NCBI GenBank assembly: GCA_030688545.1
Contig: JAUYHT010000002.1
Span: 330,001-362,000 of the forward strand
Source of the DNA: Candidatus Iainarchaeum sp.
GTDB lineage: Archaea; Iainarchaeota; Iainarchaeia; Iainarchaeales; VGJJ01
Reading direction: 5' to 3'
Length of the DNA: 32,000 bases
The notes below the pieces were generated by a model. It was not told the DNA's origin. It worked only from the letters and a program-made list of their open reading frames with translations, and did not search any database. Every line of letters starts with the position of its first letter. Position 1 is the stretch's first letter. The translations under genes and the position numbers were made by a program. Below are positions 3,352 through 31,700 of this stretch, piece after piece.

Positions 3352-3620
3352 GGTGCGGTTGAAGGAAAATCAACCGGATGGTTGAGGCCAGGGTTTCACC
3401 GATGGGTTAAAAGCCTGCATTCCTACCAATCCGGGCATGAGACCGGCTGTGATCTCTTTGCGGAAACTTCCTATCAAAAAAGGGGTTCGCTTTTACTTCA
3501 CAATCAAGATCGTTGGTTTTAGCGAGCCATCGAACGAATAATTTTTCGGAGGATGGAAAATGACACATATTTCGTTTATTTAAAAAAAACATATCTGGAC
3601 TACTAAAACTGGCTGAAAAA

Positions 3621-3750
3621 ATGACTTCCTCCCCCACCTAAAGGTGAGAGTATCCAACGATTAGAATCTTGTCACCTGCTCGCGCTGTTGCGCTCGCCAC
3701 TCAAACGAACAGTCGGCCTAAAGACCGAGGTATAAAACCACAAGACGAGG
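3621..3750 (+). repeat. Composite structured element (two hairpin units plus central GCTCGCG..CGCTCGCC box)
   Basis: Unit 1 is ATGACTTCCTCCCC-CACC-TAAA-GGTG-AGAGTATCC (3621-3655). The central box is at 3678-3698. Unit 2 is GGCC-TAAA-GACC-GAGGTATAAAACCACAAGACGAGG (3715-3750). The locus at 12556-12676 has the same architecture. Confidence 0.75.
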
Positions 3751-4313
3751 AATTATTCTGTCTGCCGTTACATTTATTAATAAAAAAAAATTAATGTCAT
3801 TATAATGGACTTTTCAAAAGAGGAATTAAGTAAAATAAAGAAGGATAAAATTTTCATTAAACAAATCAATAATTCTAAATATTGGATAAAACCTCTTTTT
3901 GAGCATAAAACATATCTCTTAGGAAATGTTAAATCGCATAAAAAATATTTTCAAGCACTAAAGAAATATTTAAGAAAACACATTCCTGAAACAAAATTCA
4001 TTAAGTTTGATAAGAGAATAACTTTAATTGTCCAAAAAGATATTACAGGAAAAAAGCTAACAAAATTAAAGGAAATTAAAGAATTAATGAATTTGAAACA
4101 AAATAAGAGTTTCAGGAATGGACTTAAAAAATTGCTTGAAAATAAAAAATGGGTTATTGATTTGTATATCTATAAAGAAAATTTTATTTCTACAAAAAAC
4201 AAAGAATTATTTTATATCGATGGAAGAATGCCAATATTTCCAGAGCCAAAAGAAGATAGATATCAAATAAGTAAAAAAAGGACATTATGGCTTCTAAGGC
4301 AGACAGAATAATT
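3751..4313. mobile_element. 563-bp AT-rich cassette bounded by perfect 16-nt inverted repeats
   Basis: AATTATTCTGTCTGCC (3751-3766) has its exact reverse complement GGCAGACAGAATAATT at 4298-4313. The interior is the lowest-GC part of the window and carries one ORF. No transposase was recognised. Confidence 0.45.
3805..4311 (+). CDS. Lys-rich hypothetical protein inside the IR-bounded cassette
   Basis: 168-aa ORF. TATA-like TTTATTAA (3773-3780) lies about 28 nt upstream of the ATG. The stop codon lies inside the right inverted repeat. No confident family assignment. Confidence 0.5.
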   Translation: MDFSKEELSKIKKDKIFIKQINNSKYWIKPLFEHKTYLLGNVKSHKKYFQALKKYLRKHIPETKFIKFDKRITLIVQKDITGKKLTKLKEIKELMNLKQNKSFRNGLKKLLENKKWVIDLYIYKENFISTKNKELFYIDGRMPIFPEPKEDRYQISKKRTLWLLRQTE

Positions 4314-6537: not shown

Positions 6538-7035
6538 ATGCTTAATCCCACCCCAAACCTCAAAATCCTGGTGGATACGGTGAGGGACCCGGCCGATATG
6601 GCTGAACTGACCCATCTGGCTCTCGCCGCCAATATCCACATTTACATATCTGGAAATTCGATACGGCATGATCATCCCAAAGTCCAAAGAAAAATGAATT
6701 CGTGGAACCCTGATTTCCCGGCCTCCACCATAAACGGGCTCATTCAGTATTCTTCTGATTTCTACCAATTAGTCGGACAATTCCATGAGAAAGGATATCG
6801 CATCACGGGAACATCACCTGATGCACCCCAATCCCTTTTTTCGGTCGATCTTTCAAAAGGGAACCAATTAGTGGTATTCGGAACTGAAATGGGAGGATTA
6901 AGCCACGCCAAACGCCAATGGATGGATCGCATGGTCAGTATCCCGATGCACAACCATACGCGATTTTACACAATCCGCACCATCGTCCCAATCATCGCAT
7001 ATGAAGGACTTAGGCAACAGGGTTATTTGAGATGA
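6538..7035 (+). CDS. SPOUT (SpoU/TrmH-like) RNA methyltransferase
   Basis: LVVFGTEMGGLS and VSIPMHNHTRFYTIRTIVPIIAYE resemble TrmH motifs 2 and 3. The gene starts 10 nt after the MFS stop. Its stop TGA 7033-7035 lies inside a repeat-element unit. Confidence 0.65.
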   Translation: MLNPTPNLKILVDTVRDPADMAELTHLALAANIHIYISGNSIRHDHPKVQRKMNSWNPDFPASTINGLIQYSSDFYQLVGQFHEKGYRITGTSPDAPQSLFSVDLSKGNQLVVFGTEMGGLSHAKRQWMDRMVSIPMHNHTRFYTIRTIVPIIAYEGLRQQGYLR

Positions 7036-7081
7036 AATCCTTCCCGGCCTAAAGGCCGAGGTATAAAACCACAAGACGGGG
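7032..7081 (+). repeat. Structured element unit (solo)
   Basis: ATGAAATCCTTCCC-GGCC-TAAA-GGCC-GAGGTATAAAACCACAAGACGGGG. Positions 7045-7081 differ from 3714-3750 at 2 of 37 positions. Further weak hairpins follow at 7111-7129 and 7151-7165. Confidence 0.75.
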
Positions 7082-7234
7082 AGTCGAAAAATCACTATAA
7101 CCATCGCTTTGACATCCTAAAAGGAAGTCAACAGAGCTGTCCATTGACTCCACTTTATAAAGGTGAAAACCTAATGTCAGTCGACACTTCAACACGCGCA
7201 CTGATGAAAGATATTTTAGAATGGGTGATTTTTG

Positions 7235-7684
7235 ATGCGATCAAAGCCCGTAATTAGGACCATTCAAAAGAAGGATATCAATCGCGTTTATTCGATCGGC
7301 AAGCAATTCTTTTTCGGGCCCGACAAATGGGATTGGGGATGGACGATTGAGTATGTCACTTTCCTGTCCGAGTATCACACCGATACCTTTTTCGTCGCTG
7401 AAATGAATGGATCCATTATCGGTTTCATCGTTTCAAAAGCACCTATCAGTTCGGATAAACCCACCGTCGGGTGGTTGGAATCCATGGCAGTCCTTCCTGA
7501 AAACCAGAAAAAGGGGGTTGGAACCGCCCTCATGGACCAAGCTATCAAAGTATTGAAGAAAAAGGGGATGCATTCGGTCCGATTAACCAATTGGCAATCC
7601 AAAAAGCACCTGAACTCCCTGTATGAAAAGTACGGGTTTTCCGCGAAAGACCACTTGATCATGCGCGAAAAGATGCTCGAATGA
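7235..7684 (+). CDS. GNAT-family N-acetyltransferase
   Basis: Acetyl-CoA-binding motif A is present (ENQKKGVGTALMDQAIKVLKKKG). Size is about 150 aa. The track start TTG 7232 is an alternative. Confidence 0.85.
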   Translation: MRSKPVIRTIQKKDINRVYSIGKQFFFGPDKWDWGWTIEYVTFLSEYHTDTFFVAEMNGSIIGFIVSKAPISSDKPTVGWLESMAVLPENQKKGVGTALMDQAIKVLKKKGMHSVRLTNWQSKKHLNSLYEKYGFSAKDHLIMREKMLE

Positions 7685-8732: not shown

Positions 8733-8760
8733 GAAAACCTATTTACCCGCATTCGAATAA

Positions 8761-8796
8761 ATGACTTCCCCCCTACTAAAAGGCCGAGGAACTCAA
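8761..8796 (+). repeat. Degenerate structured element unit
   Basis: ATGACTTCCCCCCTAC-TAAAA-GGCCGAGGAACTCAAG keeps the 5' box, the loop and the GGCCGAGG half, but the left stem arm is lost. It lies in the divergent HAD/Nudix promoter region. Confidence 0.5.
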
Positions 8797-9909: not shown

Positions 9910-10506
9910 TTACATTTCAAGTATATAATTACTTATTATATTTTCGAAGCCTTTTTCCCGCACAATTTTCCACGCTTCCTGAGTACTTTTATGATTTTTC
10001 CTTTTTTCAATTTCGTTTTCACAAAGATACTCTTTGTTTATTTTTCTAAATAATTTATTTTGTATTGCATACACTAGGATATGCGAGTAGCTATCATTTT
10101 CAAGAGTTGGAAAGTCTTTTTTTAACTCTGTTATCCCTTTTCTTACTTTTATTTCTTCCAGTGCATTATGAATAAGCTCATGAGTTATCAGATAAATTAA
10201 ATTTTCATTATCCATTCGTTTCCCGTTTGAAGTGCAAAGTGATATTGTCAAGGGATCTGAAAAAGTAGTATTATGCGCACGGAATGGTAAAACATAAATT
10301 CTAATTTCCTTTCTTCTCCAAATTACTTTAATAAAATCAGATATCATTTTCAAATTATTTTCAAGTTCAGGAATTCTTGTTTTTAATTCGCTAATAGACA
10401 ACTTAAAATCATCATCACTTAATTCCGCAATCGGAATATCATTCATCATCCCCAAAATCTTTTGAGAATAAATTCGACTATTCTTTATCAGTATCTCAGG
10501 ATACAT
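9910..10506 (-). CDS. HExxH-motif protein, AT-rich paralog of 791-1408
   Basis: 198 aa with WRRKEIRIYV, FSDPLTISL, HELIHNAL and EAWKIVREKGFENI matching the 791-1408 product. TATA-like ATATTTAA (reverse complement of 10529-10536) lies about 27 nt upstream of the ATG. Confidence 0.65.
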   Translation of the reverse strand: MYPEILIKNSRIYSQKILGMMNDIPIAELSDDDFKLSISELKTRIPELENNLKMISDFIKVIWRRKEIRIYVLPFRAHNTTFSDPLTISLCTSNGKRMDNENLIYLITHELIHNALEEIKVRKGITELKKDFPTLENDSYSHILVYAIQNKLFRKINKEYLCENEIEKRKNHKSTQEAWKIVREKGFENIISNYILEM

Positions 10507-10673: not shown

Positions 10674-11526
10674 ATGGAGGGATTTTCCTGATACCTGAAA
10701 CAGGTTCATTAGAGCTCTTGACGAGCCAGCCGAAGAATGCCAAGGGAGCGATTATTCAGAAGCTGGCTAAGCAATGGCCATTGACAGCCAAGGAGCTATC
10801 CAATATTCTCCAACGAGAATTTGCCCTACAAGTTACCTATCAGCGGTTCATAAAGCCCTTCAAGAGCTCGAAAGGGATCACGTAGTGGAAAAGAATGAGC
10901 ATGGATACCAATTTCACGAGAATTGGATCCAAAACGTCCTCAAAATATCCAACGCCATCGCCCAAAACTATTCCCGAAATGAGCCCTTGGATTTTGATAA
11001 AGACGTTATCCAGCTCCACTTTACCTCATGGTTGAATGCCGGCCGGTTTGGAAGTTTCACGTTTAAGAATGAATTTCCTAATCCGGAGCATAAACCCATC
11101 CTGTCCTGCTGGATGCATGTATGGCCCGTCAGCACGGTATCCGCGGAAGAAAGCAGGATACTATTAGAGCAATCCAAACGGGAAAAAGGGCTATTCTGCG
11201 TATGCCCTAACAATACGCCTCTCGATCAACTGTTTGCCGACTGGATTGGGAAACTCGGACGGAAGCATATTTTAGGAGTTGATATGAAATTAGACCATGA
11301 CTATGTCATCAAAGGAGATCACATCGCCCAGTTTTATTATCCCAAAAGCTTCTTGGAAAAGGTGGATTTATTCTACCGAGATAACACCGACATCAAAAAT
11401 ATCGATTATCAAAAACTACAAGAACTCGCCACTGAAAAGACAAATATTCATACAATTGTCATTCGAAATAAGGAACTAGCGGAAGCCAAAAGAAATGAAT
11501 TGCTGGAACTGTTTCAAAACCAGTAG
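10674..11526 (+). pseudogene. wHTH paralog P1, reading frame disrupted twice
   Basis: ATG 10674 reads MEGFS*. Family-like sequence then continues in the -1 frame (FLIPETGSLELLTSQPKNAKGAIIQKLAKQWPLTAKELSNILQREFALQVTYQ). At about 10843-10846 it shifts -1 again into the track ORF (AVHKALQELERD...). The family motif YQAVHK is split across the two frames. Confidence 0.6.
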
Positions 11527-11538
11527 AAAGGGTTAGAT

Positions 11539-12375
11539 ATGGAACGATACACCCAACTCCTAAAAAAGCCGCAAACCGCCAAAACCGCCATTATTCAATA
11601 TTTGGCCAGCGACTTTCCACACCCCATTAAAAAAATCCATCATATTTTACAACGGGAATATGGAATGGATATATCCTATCAAGCCGTGCACAAAGCCATA
11701 CAAGAACTAGAAGAAGAATCCATCCTCACTAAAAAAGATGGGCAATGGCAACTCAACCCCACCTGGTTGGATTCCCAGGAACGATTCATCCATCAAACAA
11801 AACAAAAATATCAAGGAAACAAAAACAAATACAACATCAACCTGAACTACGATGGGCCACAGGTATTTGAATTTGATAATTTTACGGACTTTTCAGTGGA
11901 GACGGCAAATCTAGTTGCTAAGCAGGTCTTGTATCAGAATGGAGAAAAAGCATACTACATTCTTGAGTATGGATACTGGCCACTAAAATTCAAATTTGAT
12001 CACTTGCATGTTATATACAATCTCGTAAAAAAGTCCCCTAATTCTATTTACATTATTCGAAAAGTAACTACGTATGGTAAATGGGTACAAAAACAATACT
12101 TGAGAGTTGGAGGAATTGGGATTATTGGATCAAAAATACCTATCGAAGACGACTTCTGGATTCAAGGAGAATGGATGGGACAGGTACATTTCCCTGCCGA
12201 ATCCAAAAAAATTATTGAACAATATTGGAATAAATGGAAAAATCTAGAGGATAGCTTCAAAGAACTCGGACTGAAAAAAGAGCCGAAAATGGTCATACTT
12301 GCTACCGTTACCAAAAACCCATCCATGGCAAGATTTTTGAGTAAGGAGATAGAGAAATACCTAGCAGCTGGGTAG
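11539..12375 (+). CDS. wHTH paralog P2 (N-terminal winged helix plus uncharacterised C-terminal domain)
   Basis: 278 aa. ISYQAVHKAIQELEEESILTKKDGQWQL forms the wHTH recognition and wing region. A WPLKF motif lies in the C-terminal domain. The gene starts 12 nt after P1. Confidence 0.75.
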   Translation: MERYTQLLKKPQTAKTAIIQYLASDFPHPIKKIHHILQREYGMDISYQAVHKAIQELEEESILTKKDGQWQLNPTWLDSQERFIHQTKQKYQGNKNKYNINLNYDGPQVFEFDNFTDFSVETANLVAKQVLYQNGEKAYYILEYGYWPLKFKFDHLHVIYNLVKKSPNSIYIIRKVTTYGKWVQKQYLRVGGIGIIGSKIPIEDDFWIQGEWMGQVHFPAESKKIIEQYWNKWKNLEDSFKELGLKKEPKMVILATVTKNPSMARFLSKEIEKYLAAG

Positions 12376-12379
12376 ACTC

Positions 12380-12559
12380 ATGCAAATTGAAGAAAGCTTG
12401 AACTTACTGAACCAAAAGCCGAGAAATGTAAAGAACGCAATCGTACAGAAATTATCTATGAAATGACCGGTTTCGCTCAAACAGCTCGATCACGCACTGA
12501 AACGAGAATTCGGAATGGACGTAACATATCATGCGGTGCACAAGACGGTTTCGCAATGA
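12380..12559 (+). pseudogene. wHTH paralog P3 remnant (in-frame TGA plus truncation)
   Basis: It reads MQIEESLNLLNQKPRNVKNAIVQKLSMK*PVSLKQLDHALKREFGMDVTYHAVHKTVSQ*. TGA 12464-12466 sits where P1 has Trp (KQWPL). The ORF ends at TGA 12557-12559 inside the repeat element, so the whole C-terminal domain is absent. Confidence 0.6.
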
Positions 12560-12676
12560 CTTCCTCTGCGGCCTGAAGGCCGCGGTATCCATGTAGAGCA
12601 AGAACGACAAACGGCTCGCGTAAACGCTCGCCAAACGTGGGGCGACGAATGTCGCCCTGAAGGGCGAGGTATCAAC
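12556..12676 (+). repeat. Composite structured element (second full-length copy)
   Basis: Unit 1 is ATGACTTCCTCT-GCGGCC-TGAA-GGCCGC-GGTATCC (12556-12590). The central box is GCTCGCGTAAACGCTCGCC (12614-12632). Unit 2 is TCGCCC-TGAA-GGGCGA-GGTATCAAC (12652-12676). The order matches 3621-3750. Confidence 0.75.
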
Positions 12677-12687
12677 TTTTTTCCACA

Positions 12688-12706
12688 GGCTTTTTTCTAA
12701 AAAGCC
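12688..12706. terminator. Hairpin with T/A runs between converging transcription units
   Basis: GGCTTTTT-TCT-AAAAAGCC forms an 8-bp stem, preceded by T6 (12677-12682). It lies between the + strand remnant/element and the 3' end of the - strand gene 12771-13253. Confidence 0.35.
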
Positions 12707-12770
12707 GGAATGACAGAATTTCCCGCCTCGACGAACTAAAAAGAAGTTTGATTTCTCTCAAAAATTGTGA

Positions 12771-17191: not shown

Positions 17192-18523
17192 CTACTTAGA
17201 AATCTCATGAAGCATTTTTGAATATAGCACAAAGATGTCGGCATTTAAGTGATGAAAGCCAGTACCCCCACCTGGTTTTGATCCTATTTCACCAAAAGAA
17301 GAAAAGCCAATAATTGGCGCCCTGAATTTCTTTTTTAAAGATTTAAGATCTTCTACCACATTTTCCTTCAAGACAACCCGACAGGATGCACATAAAATTG
17401 CCAAACAAAATGCCGCGGGACCTGTTTCAGAAGTATATTCCATTATATCTTTTGCAACTTCTGCAGGAGCTGAAACTACGTTTTTAGGATCTGCATCCAT
17501 TATGTACACGGGCCACCCTTCGATGAAGGGCGCTGTAAATGCCATAAAGTCCCCATTTGGTACTCCTCCTGCACGGATTACATAGTTACCATAAAGATCT
17601 GGAACACCTAATGGTTTAAGCTGTGTTAATTCTAAATAGTTTTTAACAAACTTTTCCTTTGAAATGCCGAGCTGTTCTGCATACCAATCAACGGGTTTTT
17701 TTCCTGAAATACTGGTGACAACATAACCACCTTTATCAACTCCAGAAATATAACCAAATTTATTTAGCCGTTTAGCACCATGCGCCATGGACAAACCATA
17801 CAAATGACTACATACGTTAACCGTTATTATTAAGCCATCCTTTAGTACTTTTCCAGAGTGAAGAGAATAGATATCATAAGGCTTGCCAGTAAAAAGCTTC
17901 TCAAGTTCTACACCAAAACTTCCACCGTAAATGGGTACATCGAGGCCGACTTCATCTGAAATTCCATTAATAATTTTCATTTCTTCCCCCATTTGTGGCA
18001 GCTTCATTCCACGAGAGAACGCAAAGACAAAAAATGAAGGAATTTTAACCATCCATTTTACATGAGCATTCTTCATTCGAGTAAATTGTAGATATGGATC
18101 TACAAACTTGTCTATGGAAAGTTTTTCCAACGCTTTTGAAACTGCTTCACGGGCTGCTTCACGGGGACTTTTCGAAACATTATCAATCGATGCAACTCCA
18201 ACATGAAGATAATCACTTTGAATTGAGGCGACAACAATTCCTTTCCTAAACATTTTTTCTTCAAAATAAACAGCGTCTGCACTTCCTCCAACAAACTCTG
18301 TACCACCTAAAACCGACATAAGACCTTCGTTAAGTTTATTTGGATCGTAATCTCCTGCAAAGAATACATATGTTATTGTTGGCGCTTTCCCTTTTAGTGG
18401 TGCTATAGCAGACATAGCAGCTTCTTTGGCGGCTTTTACTGGATCACTAGAGATGCTATAACCTGTTCCAACAGTTAACGCACTTTCTTTTTCCTTCATA
18501 ATATTTTTGCCAGCTGTTCGCAT
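17192..18523 (-). CDS. FIST-domain sensory protein (FIST_N plus FIST_C)
   Basis: The N-terminus (SDPVKAAKEAAMSAIAPLKGKAPTITYVFFAGDYD...LGGTEFVGGSADA) and C-terminus (PIIGFSSFGEIGSKPGGGTGFHHLNADIFVLY) fit the FIST_N and FIST_C patterns. ATG 18523 lies 4 nt after the V4R stop. The track start at 18592 overlaps the V4R gene. Confidence 0.75.
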   Translation of the reverse strand: MRTAGKNIMKEKESALTVGTGYSISSDPVKAAKEAAMSAIAPLKGKAPTITYVFFAGDYDPNKLNEGLMSVLGGTEFVGGSADAVYFEEKMFRKGIVVASIQSDYLHVGVASIDNVSKSPREAAREAVSKALEKLSIDKFVDPYLQFTRMKNAHVKWMVKIPSFFVFAFSRGMKLPQMGEEMKIINGISDEVGLDVPIYGGSFGVELEKLFTGKPYDIYSLHSGKVLKDGLIITVNVCSHLYGLSMAHGAKRLNKFGYISGVDKGGYVVTSISGKKPVDWYAEQLGISKEKFVKNYLELTQLKPLGVPDLYGNYVIRAGGVPNGDFMAFTAPFIEGWPVYIMDADPKNVVSAPAEVAKDIMEYTSETGPAAFCLAILCASCRVVLKENVVEDLKSLKKKFRAPIIGFSSFGEIGSKPGGGTGFHHLNADIFVLYSKMLHEISK

Positions 18524-18527
18524 TTTT

Positions 18528-19127
18528 TCACCACCAGAAATGTCCACGTTGATTAGGCTGACTAACCGCGAGCTGGTATTTAAACAAGTCACTATTCTTA
18601 TCGAAAGTCTCCCTTTTTTTAATCAAAAATGAACACTCTTTATCTCCCGAAGCTAAACATTGGTGTTCCAAGGCTTCAATATTTGGTTCATTGAATAGTA
18701 AAGAAAATGCCCCAGCCAGCATGCCCCTCGCGACGTGATCGACCGGGTGTTTTGTCTTTCCGTAATTTGAGGCGACAGCCGAACCATCCAAACTAACAAT
18801 AGCTTGCATTTTTGCAAAATCGATTGAATCAATATTGTATATTCCATCTCCATGAGAATTCAGTAAATTAAATATCAGGCCCATATATTCTGTTCGATTC
18901 ATTGAAACTCCCGCCTTTAATGTATTTGAGAAATTTTTAAATCCTACATCTTTACTTACATTGTAAATTTGTTGTGGAAGCTGATTATCTACCTGCTGTT
19001 GTAAGTTAGATATCAAACTGGAAGGCATCATTACAAATCGATCATTAAAAAATGATATATTTCCCTTTTCAAGTTTCAATTGTTTGACAAGCATCATTTT
19101 AGAAATAAAGTCGTATGTCATAACCAT
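18528..19127 (-). CDS. V4R-domain small-molecule-binding protein
   Basis: The C-terminal HQCLASGDKECSFLIKK matches the V4R Cys-x-Gly-x-Cys-x-Phe signature. Size is about 200 aa. The ATG overlaps the KaiC-like stop (TGATG). Confidence 0.7.
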   Translation of the reverse strand: MVMTYDFISKMMLVKQLKLEKGNISFFNDRFVMMPSSLISNLQQQVDNQLPQQIYNVSKDVGFKNFSNTLKAGVSMNRTEYMGLIFNLLNSHGDGIYNIDSIDFAKMQAIVSLDGSAVASNYGKTKHPVDHVARGMLAGAFSLLFNEPNIEALEHQCLASGDKECSFLIKKRETFDKNSDLFKYQLAVSQPNQRGHFWW

Positions 19128-19885
19128 CAAAGCTTGTTAACTAAGTCGGTGCTTTCTTGCAACTCAATTCCCTTACTAGTTATAATATAGTCAAGTGTGT
19201 GAAAGCCATGATCAGTGTACCTCATTTTCCTTACCTTTAATGTCCGAAATTTTGTTCCTTCCAGAAAATGCAGTGTCACCACACCATCAACTATAAATTC
19301 ACTCACTCCATCAGTGGAAAAACCTACATCTCCTTCATGTAATTCGGAAGTGAATATTACAGTTGTTCCAAATTCTTTGAACTTGTTTAGTACATTATAA
19401 AGAATAATTTTGGTTACAATTTGTTCAGTACGTTGTATAGGAGATACAGTGTCTACAATGTTTATCATTGAAAATGCTTTATCCTTTTGTAATTCACCTA
19501 GCATCAACGAATCTGTAAGAGTAGTCATTGAGTCAATGACAATTCTTTTAGGTTGAAATGTTTTAACTAATTCTTCAATTTTTGTCAGAAAGTGATCTTC
19601 TTCCAAGACTTTAAAGAAGATAATTCTGAGTAAATTCCGATTTTCTAGATCTACCAGATTCCATCCAAATTGAGACGCTGATTTCTGCAATTCTTCTTCG
19701 GACTGCTCAGTCGAGATATATAATCCTTTTTCCCCATATAGGGTGGCCCCATTAACAAGATACTGTAAGGAGATAGTAGATTTCCCAGTCCCAGCCCCCC
19801 CAGAAAGTAGTACGAGGTTCCCTTCGGGAAATCCCCCATTGAGGGCTTTGTCCAACCCCTGGATGCCAGTCTTGCTGCGTTGCAT
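19127..19885 (-). CDS. Single-domain KaiC-like (RecA-superfamily) ATPase
   Basis: GIQGLDKALNGGFPEGNLVLLSGGAGTGKST (Walker A) and RIVIDSMTTL (Walker B) are present. At 252 aa it has the typical archaeal KaiC-like layout. Confidence 0.9.
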   Translation of the reverse strand: MQRSKTGIQGLDKALNGGFPEGNLVLLSGGAGTGKSTISLQYLVNGATLYGEKGLYISTEQSEEELQKSASQFGWNLVDLENRNLLRIIFFKVLEEDHFLTKIEELVKTFQPKRIVIDSMTTLTDSLMLGELQKDKAFSMINIVDTVSPIQRTEQIVTKIILYNVLNKFKEFGTTVIFTSELHEGDVGFSTDGVSEFIVDGVVTLHFLEGTKFRTLKVRKMRYTDHGFHTLDYIITSKGIELQESTDLVNKL

Positions 19886-19914: not shown

Positions 19915-19965
19915 GGGATTGCCCGGATAGCTAAACGTGGATTTAAAACCTCTTAAAAGTTGGTT

Positions 19966-20829
19966 ATGTTTATGGATACATCGGGTGGGATACCTTTTGG
20001 AGGTAGCGGGCAGCGCGTTCGCGACCAGGTTTTAGTAATCTTAAGTGAGGAATTTCCTCTGACGGTAAAAGAATTGTTTAATCGCATATCGCGCCAAGGA
20101 CATGAAATTACATATCAGGCTGTTCACAAAGTTGTCAATCAACTGATGGATGAAGGAATAACGGAGAAAAAAGGAAAAGGTGTTCAATTAAGTCAAAGTT
20201 GGATTCACAAGGTAAAAGAATATGCGTTTAATGTCGATACTATATATACCAAAGGAAAACAATACAAACTACCCCGCTTCTTCGAGAAACCATACACGAT
20301 TGTGTTCGACGACTTTTCAACGTATGTTGTTTGGATCGCAGAAAATCTTCGCGACGGAAAATTCTCACAGGGAAAGACGGGCATAGTATATGGAATGTTT
20401 TATCACGCCCCATGGCCTTTGCGCTTTAATTTTTCTGATTTTGAATTGTTAAGGCAAATGGCCACCAAATGCCATGCAATTGGAATTTCGGCATGTGATA
20501 TGCCTTTTGATCGGTGGGTTGCTACTCACTTTAAGCTTGGTGGAGTAAAACAATTCAAAACAGGAATGAAAACCAAAATAAAAGAAGATTATTACGTGAC
20601 TGAGGATGTTGTGGTTCGTGTGAAGTTTTCTCCTGAAACGATTGCATTTCTCGACAAGATCTATTCTAAAATTCATGATTTAAAGGATCTTTTTCACTTT
20701 TACCTAGTTGAATTAGAACGAAAAGCCCCAATTCATATTGAATTAACAGCTGAGCGAAATCCCATGTTGGCAAAAATGATTGAAAACCAAATCAAACAAT
20801 ACCTAAACGAAACGGAGAAAGGAAAATGA
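19966..20829 (+). CDS. wHTH paralog P4
   Basis: ITYQAVHKVVNQLMDEGITEKKGKGVQL wHTH motif and APWPLRF in the C-terminal domain. The track start TTG 19960 and ATG 19972 are alternatives. Confidence 0.75.
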   Translation: MFMDTSGGIPFGGSGQRVRDQVLVILSEEFPLTVKELFNRISRQGHEITYQAVHKVVNQLMDEGITEKKGKGVQLSQSWIHKVKEYAFNVDTIYTKGKQYKLPRFFEKPYTIVFDDFSTYVVWIAENLRDGKFSQGKTGIVYGMFYHAPWPLRFNFSDFELLRQMATKCHAIGISACDMPFDRWVATHFKLGGVKQFKTGMKTKIKEDYYVTEDVVVRVKFSPETIAFLDKIYSKIHDLKDLFHFYLVELERKAPIHIELTAERNPMLAKMIENQIKQYLNETEKGK

Positions 20830-21686
20830 GCACGCAAAAATTAACTTCGATTCCCTTTATCGGTGGCCAAGGTTCTACGCGCGATGAAATCTTAGCCATT
20901 TTGAGCGAAGAGTTTCCCTTTTCCGCCAAGGAAATTTATGCCCGTGTCAAACGACAGGGAAGAAATGTTTCCTATCAAGCGGTTCATAAAACGCTCCAAT
21001 CCTTGATCGAACAGCGTGTGCTGGAAAAACAAAATTCCACATATCTCATCCAGAAAGAATGGATTACCAACATCCGGGATCATTTGACTATATTGGAACA
21101 TCAATATCAGGAAAAACCTTCGGCCAAAAAAGTGTTAGAGGAAGCCAAAAAAACCACCGTCAAACTTCACTTTTCGAGTTTAACGACAATGAGTGTTTTT
21201 ACTGCCGAATTGTTGGGTTTGTATCGTGAACAAACTAAAAGACCAGTTCCCCATTTCGCATTTTTGCGTCATGCATGGTGGCCATTGAAATTCGAACCAT
21301 CCCAATATTTTTTATTCAAGCGAATGGACGATAATAATCCTAATAATCGAGTCGTCGTCATCAAAAACGATCCCTTCGATAAGTGGATCGTTCGATACTA
21401 CATGCTTGTGAATAGTTCGAATAGGTTGCGATTCGAAGAAAAAGCAAAATGGGAGGAAGACTTGATTGTAAAAGGGGACTTGGTTTTGCAAACACGATAT
21501 TCCAAAGAAACGTTAAAACGCATGGATGACATCTACCAAAAAATATCCGGACTGACTGAATTATTCGACACATATTTTGTGAACATAGGAAAAGACGAAG
21601 GATTTGATATAGACATTACCATATCACACAATCCGACTATGGCAAAACTCATTACGGAGAAAATTAAAGGCTATTTTGGCGAATAA
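20826..21686 (+). CDS. wHTH paralog P5
   Basis: VSYQAVHKTLQSLIEQRVLEKQNSTYLI wHTH motif and AWWPLKF in the C-terminal domain. It shares an ATGA overlap with P4. Confidence 0.75.
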   Translation: MSTQKLTSIPFIGGQGSTRDEILAILSEEFPFSAKEIYARVKRQGRNVSYQAVHKTLQSLIEQRVLEKQNSTYLIQKEWITNIRDHLTILEHQYQEKPSAKKVLEEAKKTTVKLHFSSLTTMSVFTAELLGLYREQTKRPVPHFAFLRHAWWPLKFEPSQYFLFKRMDDNNPNNRVVVIKNDPFDKWIVRYYMLVNSSNRLRFEEKAKWEEDLIVKGDLVLQTRYSKETLKRMDDIYQKISGLTELFDTYFVNIGKDEGFDIDITISHNPTMAKLITEKIKGYFGE

Positions 21687-21741
21687 ATAGCTTATTACAT
21701 CCCCGGCCCAAAAAGCCTTGGCATTAGATTGTGAATCTGGT

Positions 21742-21806
21742 ATGACCCCTTCCCCGGTCTAAAAGCTGAGGTATAAAACCCAAGACTGCAGCGCTAACGC
21801 GCTGCC
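21742..21806 (+). repeat. Degenerate structured element unit plus 7-bp GC hairpin
   Basis: ATGACCCCTTCCCCGGTCTAAAAGCTGAGGTATAAAACCCAAGAC has an eroded stem. It is followed by a perfect hairpin GCAGCGC-TAAC-GCGCTGC (21788-21805). The locus lies between converging genes. Confidence 0.55.
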
Positions 21807-21818
21807 ATTAAATTCGGC

Positions 21819-24800
21819 TCAGTTCAGCCCAATATTTTGATCAAGGGTATAGTAGGGGGAGTAATAGCCACTCCCCAGGGGATCGATGGCGCGGCAGCGC
21901 AGGCCAACGTTGGGTTGGGTGCCAAGGCCTGAAATGTCCCATGCGAAAGAGAGGCTGGCGTCGTGCACCCCTATTTCCTGCCAATTGGAGGGGTTGGTGT
22001 TGGTTTGGGGCGTGCCGAAGGCGAGGGCCGTATCATAGGCATGACCGGGAGCGTTCCCCGTGTAGATGTTGTCCGACTCAGAAGCATTCCCGCCGTGATT
22101 CCCCACGGAGAGATAGGGGTACCAGTGATTGGCGCCTTCCCATCCGTTCACCTTTACGAAAGCAGAAGCGTTGGCGTCCATGATGAAGGCCCCCATCCAC
22201 CCGGTGCGGGAAATCAACACTTCCGTGCGATCCCCAACCATCACTTGGGGATTGGAATTGCTGGTGTTCTGCGTCCCATTGGATTGGTCCACTTCAACAC
22301 GGGCATACAGGTATCCATTGGGACACGCGTTGTCCACATTCATCCCGAAATATTCGTCTAAATAGGTCGGAGCCGTATGGTCGGTGTCGCGCGTGAGGGC
22401 TATTTCGGTATTCATGCACGCCGAAGTGGGTCGGGGTTGCGCGCGGAGGTAGAAACTGCTCCCCTGCTGGACCCAATCCTTCGTGATTTGATCCTCGGAA
22501 GAAGAGCCTCCCGTGCGCTGCAAGATACCCCCGCTTTCCTGCCAGGAACCTGAGCGGATGGTCCAACCATCCAGGCTGCCGTTCTCAAAATCATCCACCA
22601 GGTGTTGGGCTCCAGTGAGGAAGAAATCAGAGGGAGTGGTCTTCCCTACATACGTCGCGGAGGGGTTCCCCCAGTACATGTCGATGGTGTTCGCTCCGGC
22701 ATGGGCGTCCAATTCGATCCAGAAGGAGGCGAATGCCCCGGGGCCGTGGAGCATGAGATAATGTTTGAGAAGAACCCCCTCATGGACAAAACGGATGTCC
22801 TGGAAATCCTCCTGGACATTGTCCCAGAAAGCGGGATCTGGGAGGATGGTCTGATTGAGGTCAATGGAAGTGCGGAAGCCCGTTTGGGGCCCGGACATGG
22901 TTAAGGAGATGGGAACACGGTGGCTCCAATTGGAATCCCACCAGTTCCCTCCCCCAGTCTCGAGGGAAGCCTCCAAATGATACCTCAGGGCATCATTTTC
23001 TGGGTCCATGGACCCCGAGCAGGCCAAATCAAGGGTATTCACATAGGTCCCAGCGCAGGGAAGGTCGTCACAGGTAATACTAATGGGGGCGGAGGGAGGC
23101 AGATTAGGCAAAACGGCGAGCCAGGCCATGGCCTGCTGAACCAAATCCCGTTTTTGGGCAGGGTCCTGCACCATGCCCAGGGCGAAACCAAAGAATAGCC
23201 TCCTTGAGAAATTCTCTAAGGCCGTAATAGCGGCATTCCCATCCACCCAAGTGGCGGCCGTGAAAGCCTCCGGGAAAGGGAGTACGGCATCCGGGTATCC
23301 GCTATTATCCCCATTTAGATCCAATGGCGCGAGCGTGGGAAAGACTGAAGTGGATTGAGGGGTAATCGCGGCGGCGCCGATAGGGAGGAGGATATCCTTC
23401 ACGTGCCTCACCCCCACATAGTCATGGAGAAACGCGTCATTGTGGTCGAAGGCGATGTCATTCCCTTCGAAGAGGATATTTCCCGTGTAAAGTTCGATGG
23501 CGGCCACGTCATTGGCGTCGACGCTCTGGCTCCAGTAATTCCCCGCCGACCATACGATTAGAGGAAATTGATTCAGGAAGGAAGGGGAAGGGTTCCCTTG
23601 CGTCGATTCGTCCCAGCGGGTGACGCAATATCCGGTTTCCTTCAATTCTTTCTCCCATAGGAAAGCAGTGGAGGCATTCTCATCCACGAATGGGGAGGCA
23701 TCGTCGTCGTTCACGAGCAACACATTCTCCTCTGTGCAGAAGAATAACCGATCATCATACGTGTTGTCCGTCTCATCCGCCTCCGTCACCAGATTAGCGG
23801 GATCAACCACGATCGACACATCATAATTTCCTTTTGGGAGCAAGCGAATATGCGACACCGAAGCGACGGTGCCGGGTTCAATGTTCGTAATTGTATGAGT
23901 GGCGGTAATGCCATTGATGGAGAAGCGCACCTTGAGGCTGGGGATGAGAGTACCCCCGAAATTGGCGACGAATGCTTTAACCTTGAGGGAGCCATTGGCA
24001 TCATTATAGGTCCCCTCCACCCATACGGGAATAGCATTGGGCAACACAGGCGCCACGAAGATGGGGGTTTCCTTCCAATTGTTTAATGAATTAGGTTCGA
24101 TAATCCCAAAATCCCGGTTGGCATGGATGGTGAGGGTATGCGTACCGGCCGGAAGGAAAATGGCGGGAGTTAATCGTTTGGATTGGTTGACATCCAGCGT
24201 GCCAGTATCAGTATGGATGGGTTGCCCGTCCAAGAGCAGGTCAATGGTTACATTTGGAGCGGGTTGATGGCCCTTGTTCCGCACGATATAGGGGAGGGGG
24301 TTGATCCCTTCGATTAGGTATTGGGAAAAGAGTGTCAGATGTGGGGGATCGACATTGATTAAATCAATGGCCTCCTGCGGATGGAAGAATGTCTGAACGC
24401 TCGGAATGACTATGTCGGGACCTGACGTGGTGAACATCCAGGAGAAGATGTTCTGGAGGAGGGTTTGGTGGTGAATAAAGGGTAAATGAGTAGCTGGAGA
24501 AAATCCAAGGAATAAACCCTTGGAATCATTATCCTGAAACGCCACGATCCCACTCTCACTATTTTCCCAATTGGCCAAGGCCACGCCGCCATTGATGGGG
24601 GTGACGGCATCTGGAAATATAGTTTGATTTAAATCCATAGGAATAGGGGATGGGATGTTCTGGAGGATGTAATGTCCCAATGCGATGTTCAGGGCGACTG
24701 GATTGTTTGGATTTAATGATATTTCTTCCAAAAAAGTGGCGTGAGCGCGATTGACCATGAGTTCGTCCGAATTGTGGCGGTATCCTATTTCATCCCCGGC

Positions 24801-28776: not shown

Positions 28777-31700
28777 CTATCCATACCCTACAATTGTTAT
28801 CATATTAATATTTATCCCTGGTGCTGCTTTCACTATTTCAGCCATAATATCATTTTTTACTTCGTTATTAATTGGCTTGGTAAAGCGTATGTTAATTTTG
28901 GCTGAAGGTGCGTGCGTTGACCAGTCATTCACTTTTTTTCCTATATCCTCTATTTTTTCAATATAATTTGCGTAAGTTGTTGTCAACATGTTTGTAGTCT
29001 TCACCTCTACAAGATCACCATTCAATAACTTCCATTCCACTGGACTTACTGCACCTGGAGGTCGATATTGAAATTCAGCTAATTGCGAAACAAACTCCGG
29101 TTTTGCTCCTACTTCGATTTCCCCAAGAATTCCTTTGATATTGCCGAAATTTCCTCCTTTTACATCGTGTGCTAATTTCTTTTCTACTTTTGCCAACTCG
29201 ATTCCTGGCAATCCCCCTTGTTTTATTTTCCCAAGGCCATTAAACGTATCTTCCATATATTCTTTGGTAATTGTAAAATCTCCATCGGTTCGATTAATCA
29301 AGCTTTTTAGTGCGTTTTCTCCTCCTGGGCCGTGTTTCTGAACAACTCTTTCTGCGGATAAAATTCCTTCATCCGTGAGATTGGCAATCTTGACTCCAAC
29401 AGCGGGACCCCGTTTTATTGTTTGGGCGCTGGCATCCACGATCTCACCGCGAATCAGTTTTCCATTGGAAAGCTGGTATTCGATGAAATCCACCCCTTTT
29501 TGCAATACTTTGCTTCCCTCGGCCAATCGATCCAAAATCTTGAAATCGGGGACTTTGTTCAGCAGGAATAGGCCGGCATGCCCGATCAACCCTACTGGAA
29601 TGAGCGGGCTCGCAACATCTCCAGCCAGGAAAATGCTTTCAGCCCAGCATTTTCCGTTATTTATTTCATCGCCCCATTTGGTCAACCCGTTTTCGCACGT
29701 CCGGATGTCTTGACAGGTGGGGGTAACGAAATCGGCCATGCACTGCCCTAATTCATTGAGGGTGTAATCATAATCGAGGATGCATGTGCACAAATCCTGC
29801 GTGCTCCATGCCACCGAAATGGCATCGATGGCGGCCAATGCGAAAGGGGCCACTATGACTACCGCGGCCGGGATGAATAAGACATTTCCCGTGTAGGCTT
29901 GCCCTCCAAATCCAGGATCAGATGGTTTCAGGATGGATAGCGTCAAGACGACTTCCGATTGATTGACATCGGCAAGTGAATAGATTTGGTAGGCCCCTGT
30001 TCCGACTTCATTAGTGATTTTGTAGATGGCCCGCACCTCTCGGGATCCAAAATCCAGGTCCTTGATATAGAGCTGTCCAAACCCATTGGTATACCCTATT
30101 TCGTCCCCGTCTATTTCGACTACGACATTGGCGACCGGGTACCCATTTACGTTTTCGGCGCGTATGAGCAAATCCCCTTTCTCTTGAACCGGACAATTAT
30201 CCAGATCAAAGTATCCATAGGCGTGATTTCCGCCCAGAAAAATAGGTTTGGTGGTGGGGGAGGACCCATCCGGGCAGGCGGCGGTTAACGTATAAGAACC
30301 ATGTTTCTTGTTGATATCATGCTTTCCTTTCCCATCGGTCTTGCCGGATAGACTATTGTTTAGATAAATAGGGGCATTCCGAATGGGGGAATTGGAGTCC
30401 ATCACAATCGCGTGGATTGTGCCTGTCCCAACGAGGTTGCATTGGGGGGCGCCTTCCGAGCAACCCGCTTCGCAATATTGGATGCTACAGGTACAGCCAT
30501 TTTCAGGGTCGAAGGAACAACTGTTCAAGCGGTAATCGCCGAGGTAACAGGAGTTGTTGTAGAGGCTGCAGTCGTTCACCAATTCCATTTCCCCTAGATC
30601 CAGTTCGCCATAGAACAAGAAACACGCATTGTTCTGCGTGTCCGTGAGGGAGATGCGGGCATCGTTGAGAGTGACATTTAAACGGTAGCGATCGGAGGGG
30701 GATTGTAGCAGGAAATCGCCGAAGGAATTGGAAGTGGTATTAGTGATGAGGGTATTGTCGGTGCAGGCCCCCAAATCAAAAGGGAGGCCTGGAGATGGAT
30801 TTCCTTGAGGGGTAATGGCTTTCCCTTGCACGACCGTGGTTTCGTGGAACTGCCAGATATTTCCTCCCAAAAAACCCGTCCCGAAGGGAGAGCAATCATT
30901 GGGGCCGGTGTCAAACAGCATCTCGCCCCAGGGTACCACCAGCTTCATTTTGTAATTGCTGGCACCGGCGGCGAATACGAATTTTCCATCCGCATCGGTT
31001 ACGGCTGAGGTGACGAGTGAATCAGAACAGGTGGTGAGATTGATGGTGTAATTGGACAAGGGATTGGATAATTCATCTATCAGAAAGGCCTCATAGATGA
31101 AACCGTCCTGGCAAATATTTCCTTGGCACGCGTTGTAGAGACAATTGCTGTTTTGGGTACAGCTGCCCCCTGGATTGGTTTTACATGCTGATGGAATGCT
31201 TCCCCCGGGGGTGGAAATGTATTGCTCGTCGGCCAGGATGCTGCAAGATGTTCCAGATTGGCAGGATATGGGACCGTTCACGGTTTTGATGTCCGAATAG
31301 TTGGGACCAAAAGCCCCCAAAACCCAATACTCGCGCTCCGGTTGGGTCTGGGATTCACAATAATTGAATTTGGGGTTGACCACCCAGTAATCATCCCTTG
31401 GTTCATTGGGGGGACTATTAAGGATGGTGTGTTCAGCCCGTAAACCATCCGAATTATCGCAATCGTAATAGGCCTTCACGCGTGCCTCCCGATGGGATGG
31501 GAAGGCCGTATCGACCACGCATCCGGCGCCCGTGCAGATCTGATCGGGGACATCGACGCCGGTTAAGCATCCAAAATAATCATCCAGGATGCATGAATAC
31601 TTTTTTCCGGCGGACACTGAATTGGGGATACTGAATGAGTTGCAGGAGGTGGAAGCGCATCCCGATCCGCCGCAACCGAGCGGGTCATAATAGCAGGCAT

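Follow-up and report, generated by a model that had tools for sequence, protein, structure and literature searches.

Probable tnpA-less, PATE-like derivatives of IS200/IS605 transposons in a DPANN-type archaeon

A 32,000-nucleotide stretch of a Candidatus Iainarchaeum sp. contig (hereafter the window) was found to carry a dispersed family of short hairpin-bearing elements, which are very probably non-autonomous, tnpA-less IS200/IS605 derivatives of the PATE (palindrome-associated transposable element) type, presumably mobilised in trans. We draw this conclusion because the same two types of hairpin unit flank tnpA in related metagenome-assembled genomes (MAGs). The original prediction of IS200/IS605-derived, PATE-like miniature elements is therefore supported, as the ends of the window elements match those of tnpA-bearing ones. 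Elements of this PATE/MITE-like type are well known and ordinary, and the current understanding of the IS200/IS605 family is unchanged; what the window adds is a record that small-genome DPANN archaea harbour an IS200-type element together with miniature derivatives of it.

We counted six solid hairpin units at four loci and one eroded relic, making five intergenic loci in the window (E1 to E5; Table 1), with all units on the + strand in a single orientation. Seven units at five loci had been proposed; their coordinates and strand were all confirmed in the sequence and the five loci stand, but the unit at 8761 is a relic, not a solid copy. A covariance model made from non-window copies alone (R2), applied to both window strands with its filters disabled, returned the six solid units as its best six matches, at 7034, 12642, 12558, 3703 and 3623 (the last two in E1), and 21744, all on the + strand, with scores between 40.4 and 17.9 bits (E 2e-9 to 4.5e-3). 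The seventh-ranked match reached 11.6 bits (E 0.26). Both 8761 and 21742 had been described as eroded copies, which holds for the former, as its 5′ stem arm is lost and neither R2 nor another covariance model, R1, matched it in the window, whereas the latter is degenerate but was still found by R2 at 17.9 bits. A repeat finder grouped parts of the same loci into two families, D2 (3714-3751, 7045-7082, and 21755-21792) and D3 (3620-3656, 7031-7067, and 12555-12591). The 95% identity of the first two D2 members agrees with the reported 2 differences in 37 positions between 3714-3750 and 7045-7081.

Table 1. Elements of the family in the window and their parts.
Feature	Position	Strand	Description
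E1, composite, tnpA-less	3620..3753 (134 nt)	-	+ strand reading: starts AATGACTTCC, ends GACGAGGAAT
E1 RE-type hairpin, unit U1	3631..3650	-	arms CCCCCACC / GGTGAGAG, loop TAAA
E1 internal box	3678..3698	-	GCTCGCGC-TGTT-GCGCTCGCC
E1 LE-type hairpin, unit U2	3713..3728	-	TCGGCC-TAAA-GACCGA, one mismatch, then GGTATAAAACCACAAGACGAGGAAT
E2, terminal-only	7031..7089 (~59 nt)	-	one hairpin: arms 7042-7049 / 7054-7061, loop 7050-7053
E3, eroded relic	8760..8796 (about)	-	AAATGACTTCCCCCCTAC-TAAA-AGGCCGAGGAAC; 5′ stem arm missing
E4, composite, tnpA-less	12555..12711 (157 nt)	-	PATE family conserved in several archaeal MAGs
E4 RE-type hairpin, unit U4	12566..12585	-	CTGCGGCC-TGAA-GGCCGCGG, flanks AATGACTTCCT and TATCCA; R2 37.4 bits
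E4 internal box (same box as E1)	12613..12632	-	GGCTCGCG-TAAA-CGCTCGCC
E4 LE-type hairpin region	12640..12667	-	unit U5 TCGCCC-TGAA-GGGCGA at 12652-12667; R2 38.8 bits
E4 terminal hairpin	12688..12711	-	GGCTTTTT-TCT-AAAAAGCC, then terminal GGAAT; flank goes on GACAG
E5, terminal-only	21742..21809 (~68 nt)	-	degenerate fused hairpin arms 21752-21759 / 21764-21771, then GGTATAAAACCCAAGAC
E5 terminal hairpin	21788..21805	-	GCAGCGC-TAAC-GCGCTGC

The composites E1 and E4 retain both ends of the parent element around a short non-coding core. Their common order, a hairpin, GTATCCA, a GCTCGCG-N4-6-CGCTCGCC box, and a second hairpin, was noted in the original prediction and recurs in copies from other genomes, and both composites carry subterminal hairpins on the same strand without terminal inverted repeats, also as predicted. 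Their loci had been placed correctly, but their true extents are larger (3620-3753 and 12555-12711). In E1, the 5′-most 40 nt match the tnpA-distal end of the insertion sequence at locus L010 with 80% identity, and the 3′-most 39 nt match its tnpA-proximal end with 92% identity. The internal box of E1, read on the minus strand, has two GCGAGC arms that pair around a tandem G.A/A.G mismatch; in E4 and in the related loci L025, L039, L068, and L037, the arms of this box are invariant and the loops variable. E4 is 81.5 to 82.8% identical to four copies of 155 to 156 nt within one MAG, and these are 93.6 to 100% identical to one another with unrelated flanks. Its unit U5 overlaps an alternative hairpin, GGGCGAC-GAAT-GTCGCCC (12640-12657), one arm being common to both, and a counterpart of its second LE hairpin is present at the LE of the related loci L028, L074, and L075. 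The U1 stem is partly eroded, pairing at 6 of 8 positions, and mismatches also occur in the stems of U2 and U7, so some copies may be dead.

On the other hand, the units at 7032 and 21742, which had been taken for independent single units, are instead fusions of the two ends. The E2 hairpin joins the 5′ flank of an RE-type unit with the 3′ tail of an LE-type unit, and a deletion between two similar hairpins may have fused both ends into one in E2 and E5. Both reach further than first described (7031-7089 and 21742-21809). E2, whose 3′ boundary is approximate (7084 or 7089), shares 37 nt at 92% identity with the L010 end and gave the best model match in the window (40.4 bits). E5 shares 52 nt at 88% identity with the L028 end, and its second hairpin shows a G/C swap on both arms relative to that of L028 (GCAGCCC/GGGCTGC). 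E3, which reads AAATGACTTCC and then AAAGGCCGAGG, is a decayed relic; it is intergenic, because the adjoining Nudix gene call starts at 8848 (L001 12311).

Evidence on origin came from full-length relatives, and a search for full-length IS200/IS605 copies with matching ends, suggested with the original prediction, succeeded at four loci (L010, L028, L074, and L075). In related archaeal MAGs, both unit types flank a gene for an IS200-type Y1 transposase of 139 to 160 aa (tnpA) and lie on the strand opposite it. The unit AATGACTTCCTCC-8 bp stem-T(A/G)AA-stem-GGTATCC directly follows the tnpA stop, and the unit CGGCC-TAAA-GGCCG-AGGTATAAAACC(A)CAAGAC...GAAT stands about 75 to 95 nt before the tnpA start. 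In the + orientation of the window, L010 and L028 thus read AATGACTTCCTCC-stem-TAAA-stem-GGTATCC, antisense tnpA, and ACTATCGGCC-TAAA-GGCCGAGGTATAAAACC(A)CAAGAC...GAAT, so that the conventional order of LE, tnpA, and RE is that of the window's minus strand. Their open reading frames match Y1_Tnp (PF01797) at 6e-29, and a protein search with the L010 TnpA gave 170 matches named IS200/IS605 transposase from Diapherotrites, Woesearchaeota, and Pacearchaeota. L074 and L075, which were taken as tnpA loci by protein similarity alone, also carry one hairpin just after the tnpA stop and another 75 to 95 nt before its start, again opposite tnpA. Window elements are 80 to 92% identical to these IS ends over 37 to 52 nt. 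In the archaeal full-length relatives, tnpA is the sole transposon gene, with no tnpB; only look-alikes in Streptomyces adjoin tnpB, on its 5′ side.

The window elements themselves, at 59 to 157 nt, are too short for a transposase gene. A tblastn search with four TnpA queries and one TnpB query found neither gene, intact or decayed, in the window and about 48 kb of two flanking Logan contigs (best E 0.7), and the Pfam lists of the window's Logan contigs contained neither gene. The sample from which the window comes yielded no tnpA; both look-ups pointed to different samples.

A pattern scan of GTDB genomes yielded 69 loci, 63 of which were in DPANN or CPR-labelled MAGs. Among these 63, 41 ended within 200 nt inside an element, as is expected where a repeat breaks an assembly, and the Logan contigs of the window's sample break inside E4, at 12644-12673. 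All copies examined started with AATGA and ended in AAT, followed by GA, TA, or CA; on the top strand, a TNATT pentamer always preceded the LE and the RE always terminated in TCATT. The termini of E1 and E4, AATGACTTCC... and ...(C/G)GAAT, are not inverted copies of each other, and the hairpin spacing is long at the LE and short at the RE, matching the family rule (PMC3119063). No empty site was found when 28 window proteins were compared with the 69 loci by tblastn, none of which was syntenic. The sole close homologue contig of the SpoU gene that flanks E2 stops before the element, and the next homologue is 46% identical. We also observed that a 10-mer, CACAAGACGG, precedes E4 (12541-12550) and recurs within the LE tails of both E1 and E2. 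It was considered as a target or a trace of tandem insertion and rejected, as it is part of the codons for VHKT in a decayed wHTH paralogue; its recurrence is taken to be probably coincidental.

The 8-bp stem covaries strongly across 35 to 38 copies. In non-window copies, 89.6% of the stem cells were paired and 6 of the 8 pairs showed changes on both sides, and the covariation score was 0.445 compared with 0.143 for shuffles, none of 500 of which reached 0.445, and at most 0.13 for slid partners, although most comparison copies came through a window-derived pattern that fixed several stem positions but not their complementarity. The result was similar with the window copies included, and stems ranged from GC-rich to AT-rich (e.g., CCAAAACT/AGTTTGG). 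The claim that stem sequence changes between copies while pairing is kept therefore stands. In the other helices of E4, five sequences showed invariant pairs alone.

These data bear directly on the idea that what is conserved is a short peptide or leader ORF (RP(K/E)GRGI or a six-codon MTSSxx), with the hairpin incidental. Its appeal is that the stem differences among units U2 to U5 are all synonymous in the frame CGG CCT AAA GGC CGA GGT ATA, and that four units do read, as originally reported, from ATG through five codons to a stop within the loop. However, the frame fails with more copies, in which it gives W-P-K-G-Q, H-P-K-G-W, or P-P-K-G-E at the stem while pairing is kept; AT-rich stems exist, stops close the frame within 12 codons in E4, and full-length elements place the hairpin outside tnpA and on the other strand. 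The six-codon frames result from a constant spacing of 15 nt that separates the terminal ATGA from the T(A/G)AA loop. Both peptides are by-products of fixed spacing; we give the peptide idea practically no credence, and selection on structure, as first proposed, is upheld. Host regulation, in which the hairpins would mainly serve as transcript 3′-end or stability elements or as promoter donors, is improbable too, if less extremely so. It is true that + strand reading frames end next to E2 and E4, that E4 and E5 are each bordered by convergent genes, that the sites of E1 and E3 are divergent promoter regions, and that the LE tail contains TATAAAA/TTTTATA, but the positions are heterogeneous, an intergenic location is expected of tolerated insertions, and the sequences are IS ends. 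Scarcely more credible than the peptide is the notion that the units are REP/BIME-like repeats kept by a domesticated single-copy RAYT, and not ordinary IS derivatives. They are short, GC-rich, extragenic palindromes akin to IS200/IS605 hairpins, a relationship described for REPs (PMC3333891), and in relatives they accompany a Y1 transposase; yet the tnpA copies are themselves multi-copy and break assemblies, tnpA is flanked by two different, directly oriented ends as in a normal IS, and the window copies share one orientation, without inverted REP pairs or BIMEs. Two further candidates were dropped. A UGA recoding, read-through, or SECIS-like hairpin had come to mind because two upstream frames terminate at the TGA of the unit and the SpoU stop is followed by an open frame of 73 codons. 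It was rejected because the unit is also present outside coding contexts and at IS ends, long ORFs are normal under translation table 11, and the SpoU homologue with 46% identity terminates no more than a residue or two from the same position. Attachment sites made of tRNA fragments were discarded, as ARAGORN found no tRNA genes in the window.

A less remote proposal, which we still regard as unlikely, is that the E1 and E4 composites are genes for a minus-strand small RNA of the HgcC/PATE-derived kind with a cellular or transposon-regulating role, such as titration of TnpA; it is compatible with a transposon origin. Both composites matched RF00062 (HgcC) across the whole model on the minus strand (E1, 18.9 bits, 3608-3695; E4, 18.8 bits, 12543-12659), and the related copy in L026 scored 25.8 bits (E 2e-4); the alignment covers the hairpin at the 5′ end, the UUYA-looped 8-bp stem, and a GAGGA(A/G)GUCA tail. 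The internal GCGAGC/GCGAGC box keeps its arms and varies its loops in six copies, the minus strand has a TTTATA-like sequence on the 5′ side of the left hairpin, and a PATE-derived RNA, whose overexpression reportedly improves Halobacterium growth, is reported to have the motif in common with HgcC (PMC4615843). However, the HgcC scores (18.8 to 25.8 bits) are far under the gathering score of 50, and at gathering scores Rfam gave nothing but tRNAs in the window and seven related loci. Moreover, covariation is confined to the helix that the transposase would require in DNA form, the remaining predicted helices show no variation (double changes in 2 of 33 pairs, both within the RE hairpin), and folding z-scores of whole elements are modest (-1.1 to -2.0). 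If E1 and E4 were transcribed from the minus strand as HgcC-like RNAs acting on the Y1 transposase or the host, which is doubtful, the RNA would consist of a 5′ hairpin, a conserved GCGAGC/GCGAGC tandem-G.A helix, and the RE tetraloop, and HgcC, an orphan family whose function is still listed as unknown (PMC4615843 and PMC5732400), would be one branch of pan-archaeal PATE transcripts reaching into DPANN. A suspected resemblance of ACAAGACGG to the guanidine-III riboswitch found no model support.

For the preferred reading, as transposon derivatives, a mechanism can be proposed by analogy with IS608 and ISDra2. The active top strand would be the minus strand of the window, and its single-stranded DNA would fold into 8-bp or 6-bp stems with TT(T/C)A loops, to which a dimeric Y1/HUH transposase, presumably supplied by a full-length copy elsewhere in the genome, may bind. 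The left cut is predicted after the T-N-A-T-T target, about 25 nt before the left hairpin, and the right cut after ...GTCATT, about 12 nt past the right hairpin; if the elements are mobile at present, a single-stranded circle would be released and re-inserted 3′ of another TNATT site at a replication fork. An invariant ATACC directly 5′ of each hairpin foot may correspond to the guide sequences, which stand 5′ of the hairpin foot in IS608 (PMC3201880). The predicted E4 empty site reads, on the + strand, ...GGTTTCGC followed directly by AATGACAGAATTTCC.

Several practical points follow. Repeats of this family break metagenome assemblies of DPANN archaea. They yield spurious mini-ORFs and false gene starts, such as the ATG at 8761 of the "Nudix" ORF, and they can truncate or cap neighbour genes: the SpoU/TrmH gene (6538-7035) takes its TGA stop from the ATGA of E2. 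That all copies point the same way yields a testable prediction on the direction of replication through the region.

The novelty originally hoped for is largely removed, as the motif has been published: an 8-bp stem with a UUCA or UUUA loop is the RE-like motif of IS1341 sotRNAs and HgcC (Gomes-Filho et al. 2015, PMC4615843), also found in PATE-derived RNAs, and the minus strand of the window elements has the same stem and loop followed by GAGGA(A/G)GUCA. The elements add to the connection already published among PATEs, the RE-like tetraloop, and the HgcC family, but the central part of HgcC (RF00062) has no match here, and in contrast to IS1341 sotRNAs, the relatives accompany tnpA and not tnpB; TnpB omega-RNAs or sotRNAs overlap or follow the tnpB 3′ end, and the window holds no tnpB. 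The REP/BIME-RAYT systems and REPINs of bacteria (PMC3333891 and PMC2817692) are likewise short extragenic palindromes, akin to IS200/IS605 hairpins and reliant on a Y1 transposase, but REPs form inverted pairs with a single-copy RAYT, whereas here the orientation is direct, the two ends are unlike, and the transposase element is repeated.

As in the IS200 group (IS200, IS608, and ISDra2; PMC5027513 and PMC3201880), full-length relatives encode a Y1/HUH TnpA, subterminal hairpins stand at both ends on one strand, a conserved motif of 4 to 5 nt marks the left flank and right terminus, and a conserved sequence lies 5′ of each hairpin foot. The single orientation of the window copies also fits that group's bias toward the lagging-strand template. 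The differences are that the window copies have no tnpA, that the 8-bp stem is near-perfect with a 4-nt loop, and that the putative target and terminal motifs are TNATT and GTCATT instead of the paradigmatic TTAC and TCAA. The host, an uncultured DPANN-type archaeon of about 40% GC, sets the elements apart from haloarchaeal PATEs (Dyall-Smith et al. 2011, PMC3119063), most of which relate to tnpB elements (IS1341-type), whereas the parent here has tnpA alone (IS200 group); strain-specific insertion is known only for the haloarchaeal ones. In other respects the elements resemble PATEs closely, having near-terminal palindromes on one strand without terminal inverted repeats, no room for a transposase, ends common to IS200/IS605-type transposons, a spacer that is longer on the 5′ (LE) side than on the 3′ side, and "homogeneous" families above 90% identity. 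Terminal-only versions of about 52 bp, which arise by repeat-mediated deletion from one palindrome to the other, are also described for PATEs (PMC3119063), and E2 (59 nt) and E5 (68 nt) match these.

The hairpin-bearing elements of the window are PATE-type derivatives of an IS200-group element in a DPANN-type archaeon. All the units of the original prediction lie on the + strand of a mosaic of archaeal-looking genes (~40% GC) with no tRNA genes and no Rfam match at gathering score, and all element copies are intergenic. We searched the window, unfiltered and on both strands, with a covariance model (R2) trained on 35 copies from other genomes only. Its top six matches were exactly six units, all on the + strand (40.4 to 17.9 bits), the seventh-best reaching 11.6 bits. 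The unit at 8761 had no R2 match and is a mere relic, so that, of the predicted dispersed family of seven units, six at four loci are confirmed as solid. A repeat finder reported two families, D2 (3714-3751, 7045-7082 [95%], and 21755-21792) and D3 (3620-3656, 7031-7067, and 12555-12591).

Window elements, neighboring winged-helix genes, and hairpins at two control loci from other genomes
Feature	Position	Strand	Description	Identity to full-length IS end
E1	3620-3753 (134 nt)		Both ends and short core	5′ 40 nt, 80% (L010); 3′ 39 nt, 92% (L010)
E2	7031-7089		Single hairpin; 5′ flank of first unit type, 3′ tail of second	37 nt, 92% (L010)
E3	about 8760-8796		Decayed	
E4	12555-12711 (157 nt)		Both ends and short core	
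E5	21742-21809		Single hairpin; 5′ flank of first unit type, 3′ tail of second	52 nt, 88% (L028)
Tandem winged-helix paralogues	10774-11526, 11539-12375		Directly upstream of the fragment below	
Winged-helix paralogue fragment	12362-12558		Decayed, N-terminal (…KREFGMDVTYHAVHKTVSQ-stop), with internal stop	
Second tandem winged-helix pair	19960-20829, 20826-21686			
Hairpin directly after tnpA stop codon	L074 2803-2838 (42 bits); L075 846-881	Opposite tnpA	Detected by R1	
Hairpin 75-95 nt before tnpA start codon	L074 2272-2291; L075 309-344	Opposite tnpA	Detected by R1	

A scan for the pattern CGSCCTRAAGGSCGMGGTATMMA, covering one genome from each GTDB species, returned 69 loci, 63 of them in MAGs labelled Woesearchaeota, Nanoarchaeota, Iainarchaeum, "archaeon," or CPR bacteria, with a few chance or distant matches in Actinobacteria, Bradyrhizobium, and Treponema. 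Many MAGs held 5 to 10 copies, and in 41 of the 63 loci the fetched DNA stops ≤200 nt downstream of the hairpin. Downstream of the hairpin in most Woesearchaeota and Nanoarchaeota copies is a conserved sequence coding, on the opposite strand, for a protein of 136 to 147 aa, an IS200-type Y1 transposase (Pfam PF01797, E 5e-27 to 1e-33). The complete structure was present at two loci, L010 (a MAG labelled Thaumarchaeota) and L028 (Candidatus Iainarchaeum). In the orientation of the original prediction, these read AATGACTTCCTCC-(8-bp stem)-TAAA-(stem)-GGTATCC, the unit type of U1 and U4, followed by antisense tnpA, a GC-rich hairpin, and ACTAT-CGGCC-TAAA-GGCCG-AGGTATAAAACC(A)CAAGAC...(C/G)GAAT, the type of U2, U3, and U7, including the "CACAAGACG" tail noted in the original prediction. 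The match between E5 and L028 runs through the second hairpin, with a G/C swap on both arms setting E5 apart. As a control independent of the DNA pattern, a protein search with the L010 TnpA gave 170 matches, named IS200/IS605 transposase, in Diapherotrites, Woesearchaeota, and Pacearchaeota; at the two loci fetched, L074 and L075, another covariance model of the unit (R1) detected the hairpin at both expected places. Full-length IS200/IS605 copies whose ends match the units were thus found at four loci, and the proposal of IS200/IS605-derived, PATE-like miniature elements is essentially right, both unit types flanking tnpA in L010 and L028.

MAGs labelled Patescibacteria, Magasanikbacteria, and "bacterium" (L032, L045, L041/L044/L051/L067) hold the Woesearchaeota-type tnpA element as well, which could reflect cross-domain transfer between episymbionts or mis-binning. 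Four loci of Streptomyces and Micromonospora (L027 2954-2976, L040, L066, and L070) have a near-identical hairpin and flanks, TTTCCTCCC-CGGCC-TGAA-GGCCG-AGGTATCCA, the upstream flank being kept in all four, so this end type appears to be shared across domains. The L027 hairpin lies ~120 nt upstream of a tnpB (OrfB_IS605) gene, on the strand opposite to it.

Sequence searches and Pfam lists revealed neither tnpA nor tnpB, in intact or decayed form, in the window and flanking contigs (~48 kb in total), and the five window loci are therefore transposase-less derivatives. The single hairpin of E2 and E5 is the product expected from deletion between two similar hairpins. The E4 family is kept across genomes, with four copies in one MAG that are 93.6 to 100% identical to one another in unrelated flanks and 81.5 to 82.8% identical to E4. 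The core of E1 and E4 contains a GCTCGCG-N4-6-CGCTCGCC box. On the minus strand, this internal box (3678-3698 and 12613-12632; also L025, L037, L039, and L068) has two GCGAGC arms, invariant in all six copies, that pair around a tandem G.A/A.G mismatch, and a variable 4-nt loop (UUUA, AGCG, AGCA, AGUG, AAUA, or AACA); in the full-length ISs L010 and L028 the box is missing, its position being taken by a perfect GC hairpin. A sequence just upstream of E5, CCCCGGCCCAAAAAGCCTTGGCATTAG (21700-21725), is weakly similar to the terminal sequence CCGGCC...AAAAAGGCCGAAT that E4-family copies have, and could represent another decayed end.

The stem differences among U2 to U5 are compensatory and also synonymous in the frame R-P-(K/E)-G-R-G-I, which made a peptide reading worth testing. 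It fails with more copies: the frame becomes W-P-K-G-Q in L010, H-P-K-G-W in L028, and P-P-K-G-E in U1, AT-rich stems occur (e.g., CCAAAACT/AGTTTGG in L031), and all the while pairing is kept. In the 35 non-window copies, 89.6% of the cells of the 8-bp stem are paired and six of its eight pairs show both-sided changes; the covariation score is 0.445, compared with 0.143 for shuffles (none of 500 as high) and ≤0.13 for partners slid by 1 to 3 columns, and adding the window copies gave the same result. Most copies were collected by a pattern that restricts one stem pair to G or C without demanding complementarity; all family members are complementary at that pair, and most of the stem variety comes from pattern-independent copies. 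These results bear out selection on structure rather than on a peptide, as predicted. The six-codon ORFs also pointed out are a by-product: their ATG belongs to the conserved terminal AATGA, and the loop TAA/TGA is fixed 15 nt downstream of it.

Read by IS convention, with the left end ahead of tnpA and the right end behind it, the elements occupy the minus strand of the window. The right end reads GGATACC-stem-TT(T/C)A-stem-GAGGAAGTCATT, its terminus lying about 12 nt from the hairpin foot, and the left end begins with ATTC, about 25 nt ahead of its hairpin, in a spacer that holds an extra small hairpin in L028, L074, L075, E4, and E5. All copies examined have a right end terminating in TCATT and a left end that follows TCATT, TAATT, or TGATT, once ACATT. 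Such a TNATT-like pentamer would fit the rule that IS200/IS605 left ends insert 3′ of a tetra- or pentanucleotide specific to the element (PMC5027513), and an invariant ATACC (GGTAT on the + strand) occupies the place of the guide sequences, which lie 5′ of each hairpin foot and read the cleavage sites (PMC3201880). From these matches we infer that TnpA supplied in trans would mobilise the elements by single-strand "peel-and-paste." The single orientation of all window copies over 18 kb fits the family's preference for the lagging-strand template (PMC5027513), with four or five loci not being significant alone.

At the E4 left end, three consecutive arms GGGCGAC/GTCGCCC/GGGCGAG (12640-12667) permit two mutually exclusive hairpins, an arrangement that E4-family copies share. 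A 10-mer of the left-end tail, CACAAGACGG (3739-3748 and 7070-7079), recurs at 12541-12550, 5 nt before E4 and within VHKT codons of the wHTH pseudogene, probably by coincidence, an element preference for such a sequence being possible.

The TGA inside the ATGA of E2 is the stop codon of a SpoU/TrmH gene, and a 46%-identical homologue ends ≤1 to 2 residues from the same position. The SpoU frame stays open for 73 codons past this TGA (7036-7256), through E2 to the start of a GNAT gene; recoding at the stop was considered and rejected. The TGA inside the ATGA of E4 closes the decayed third tandem wHTH paralogue fragment, which has an earlier internal stop, and E3, through its ATG, adds a spurious 5′ extension to a Nudix ORF, the gene being called from 8848. 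The winged-helix paralogue family had no Pfam match beyond weak wHTH matches. Elsewhere in the window, two paralogous proteins of ~200 aa (791-1408, +; 9910-10506, −) have a common HELIHN (HExxH-like) motif and no Pfam family recorded in the contig annotations. Two giant genes (21819-27392 and 28777-31956; 47 to 57% GC, versus 33 to 44% in the rest) encode a 1,857-aa S8 peptidase with CARDB and part of a 1,870-aa protein in a Logan contig. A minus-strand cluster (17192-19885) encodes a KaiC-like ATPase, a V4R-domain protein, and a FIST-domain protein, a second V4R gene lying past the window end in contig L002.

The window proteins are encoded on two Logan contigs of run SRR13727534 that overlap solely at 12644-12673, inside U5; a repeated U5 sequence in the sample would be expected to break an assembly there. 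An NCBI MAG labelled "archaeon" has a fragment of the SpoU/TrmH protein at 99% identity.

Compared in permissive mode with Rfam HgcC (RF00062), E1 and E4 matched the whole model on the minus strand with 18.9 and 18.8 bits, and the L026 copy scored 25.8 bits (E 2e-4); the gathering score, 50, is far higher than any of these. The aligned parts are the 5′ hairpin and the 8-bp stem with a UUYA loop and GAGGA(A/G)GUCA tail; at the E4 left end, the model aligns to the upstream alternative of the two hairpins. Except for the transposase hairpin, the helices predicted in E4 never vary and are thus uninformative. The window hairpin is exactly the RE-like tetraloop of Gomes-Filho et al., an 8-bp stem with a UUCA loop or its UUUA variant, found in IS1341 sotRNAs, HgcC, and a PATE-derived Halobacterium RNA (PMC4615843); the motif is therefore already known. 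PATEs lack terminal inverted repeats, have near-terminal palindromes common to IS605-type transposons, and form homogeneous families with ~52-bp "terminal-only" versions from repeat-mediated deletion (PMC3119063), and the window elements fit this description in their ends, palindromes, homogeneous families, and terminal-only versions.
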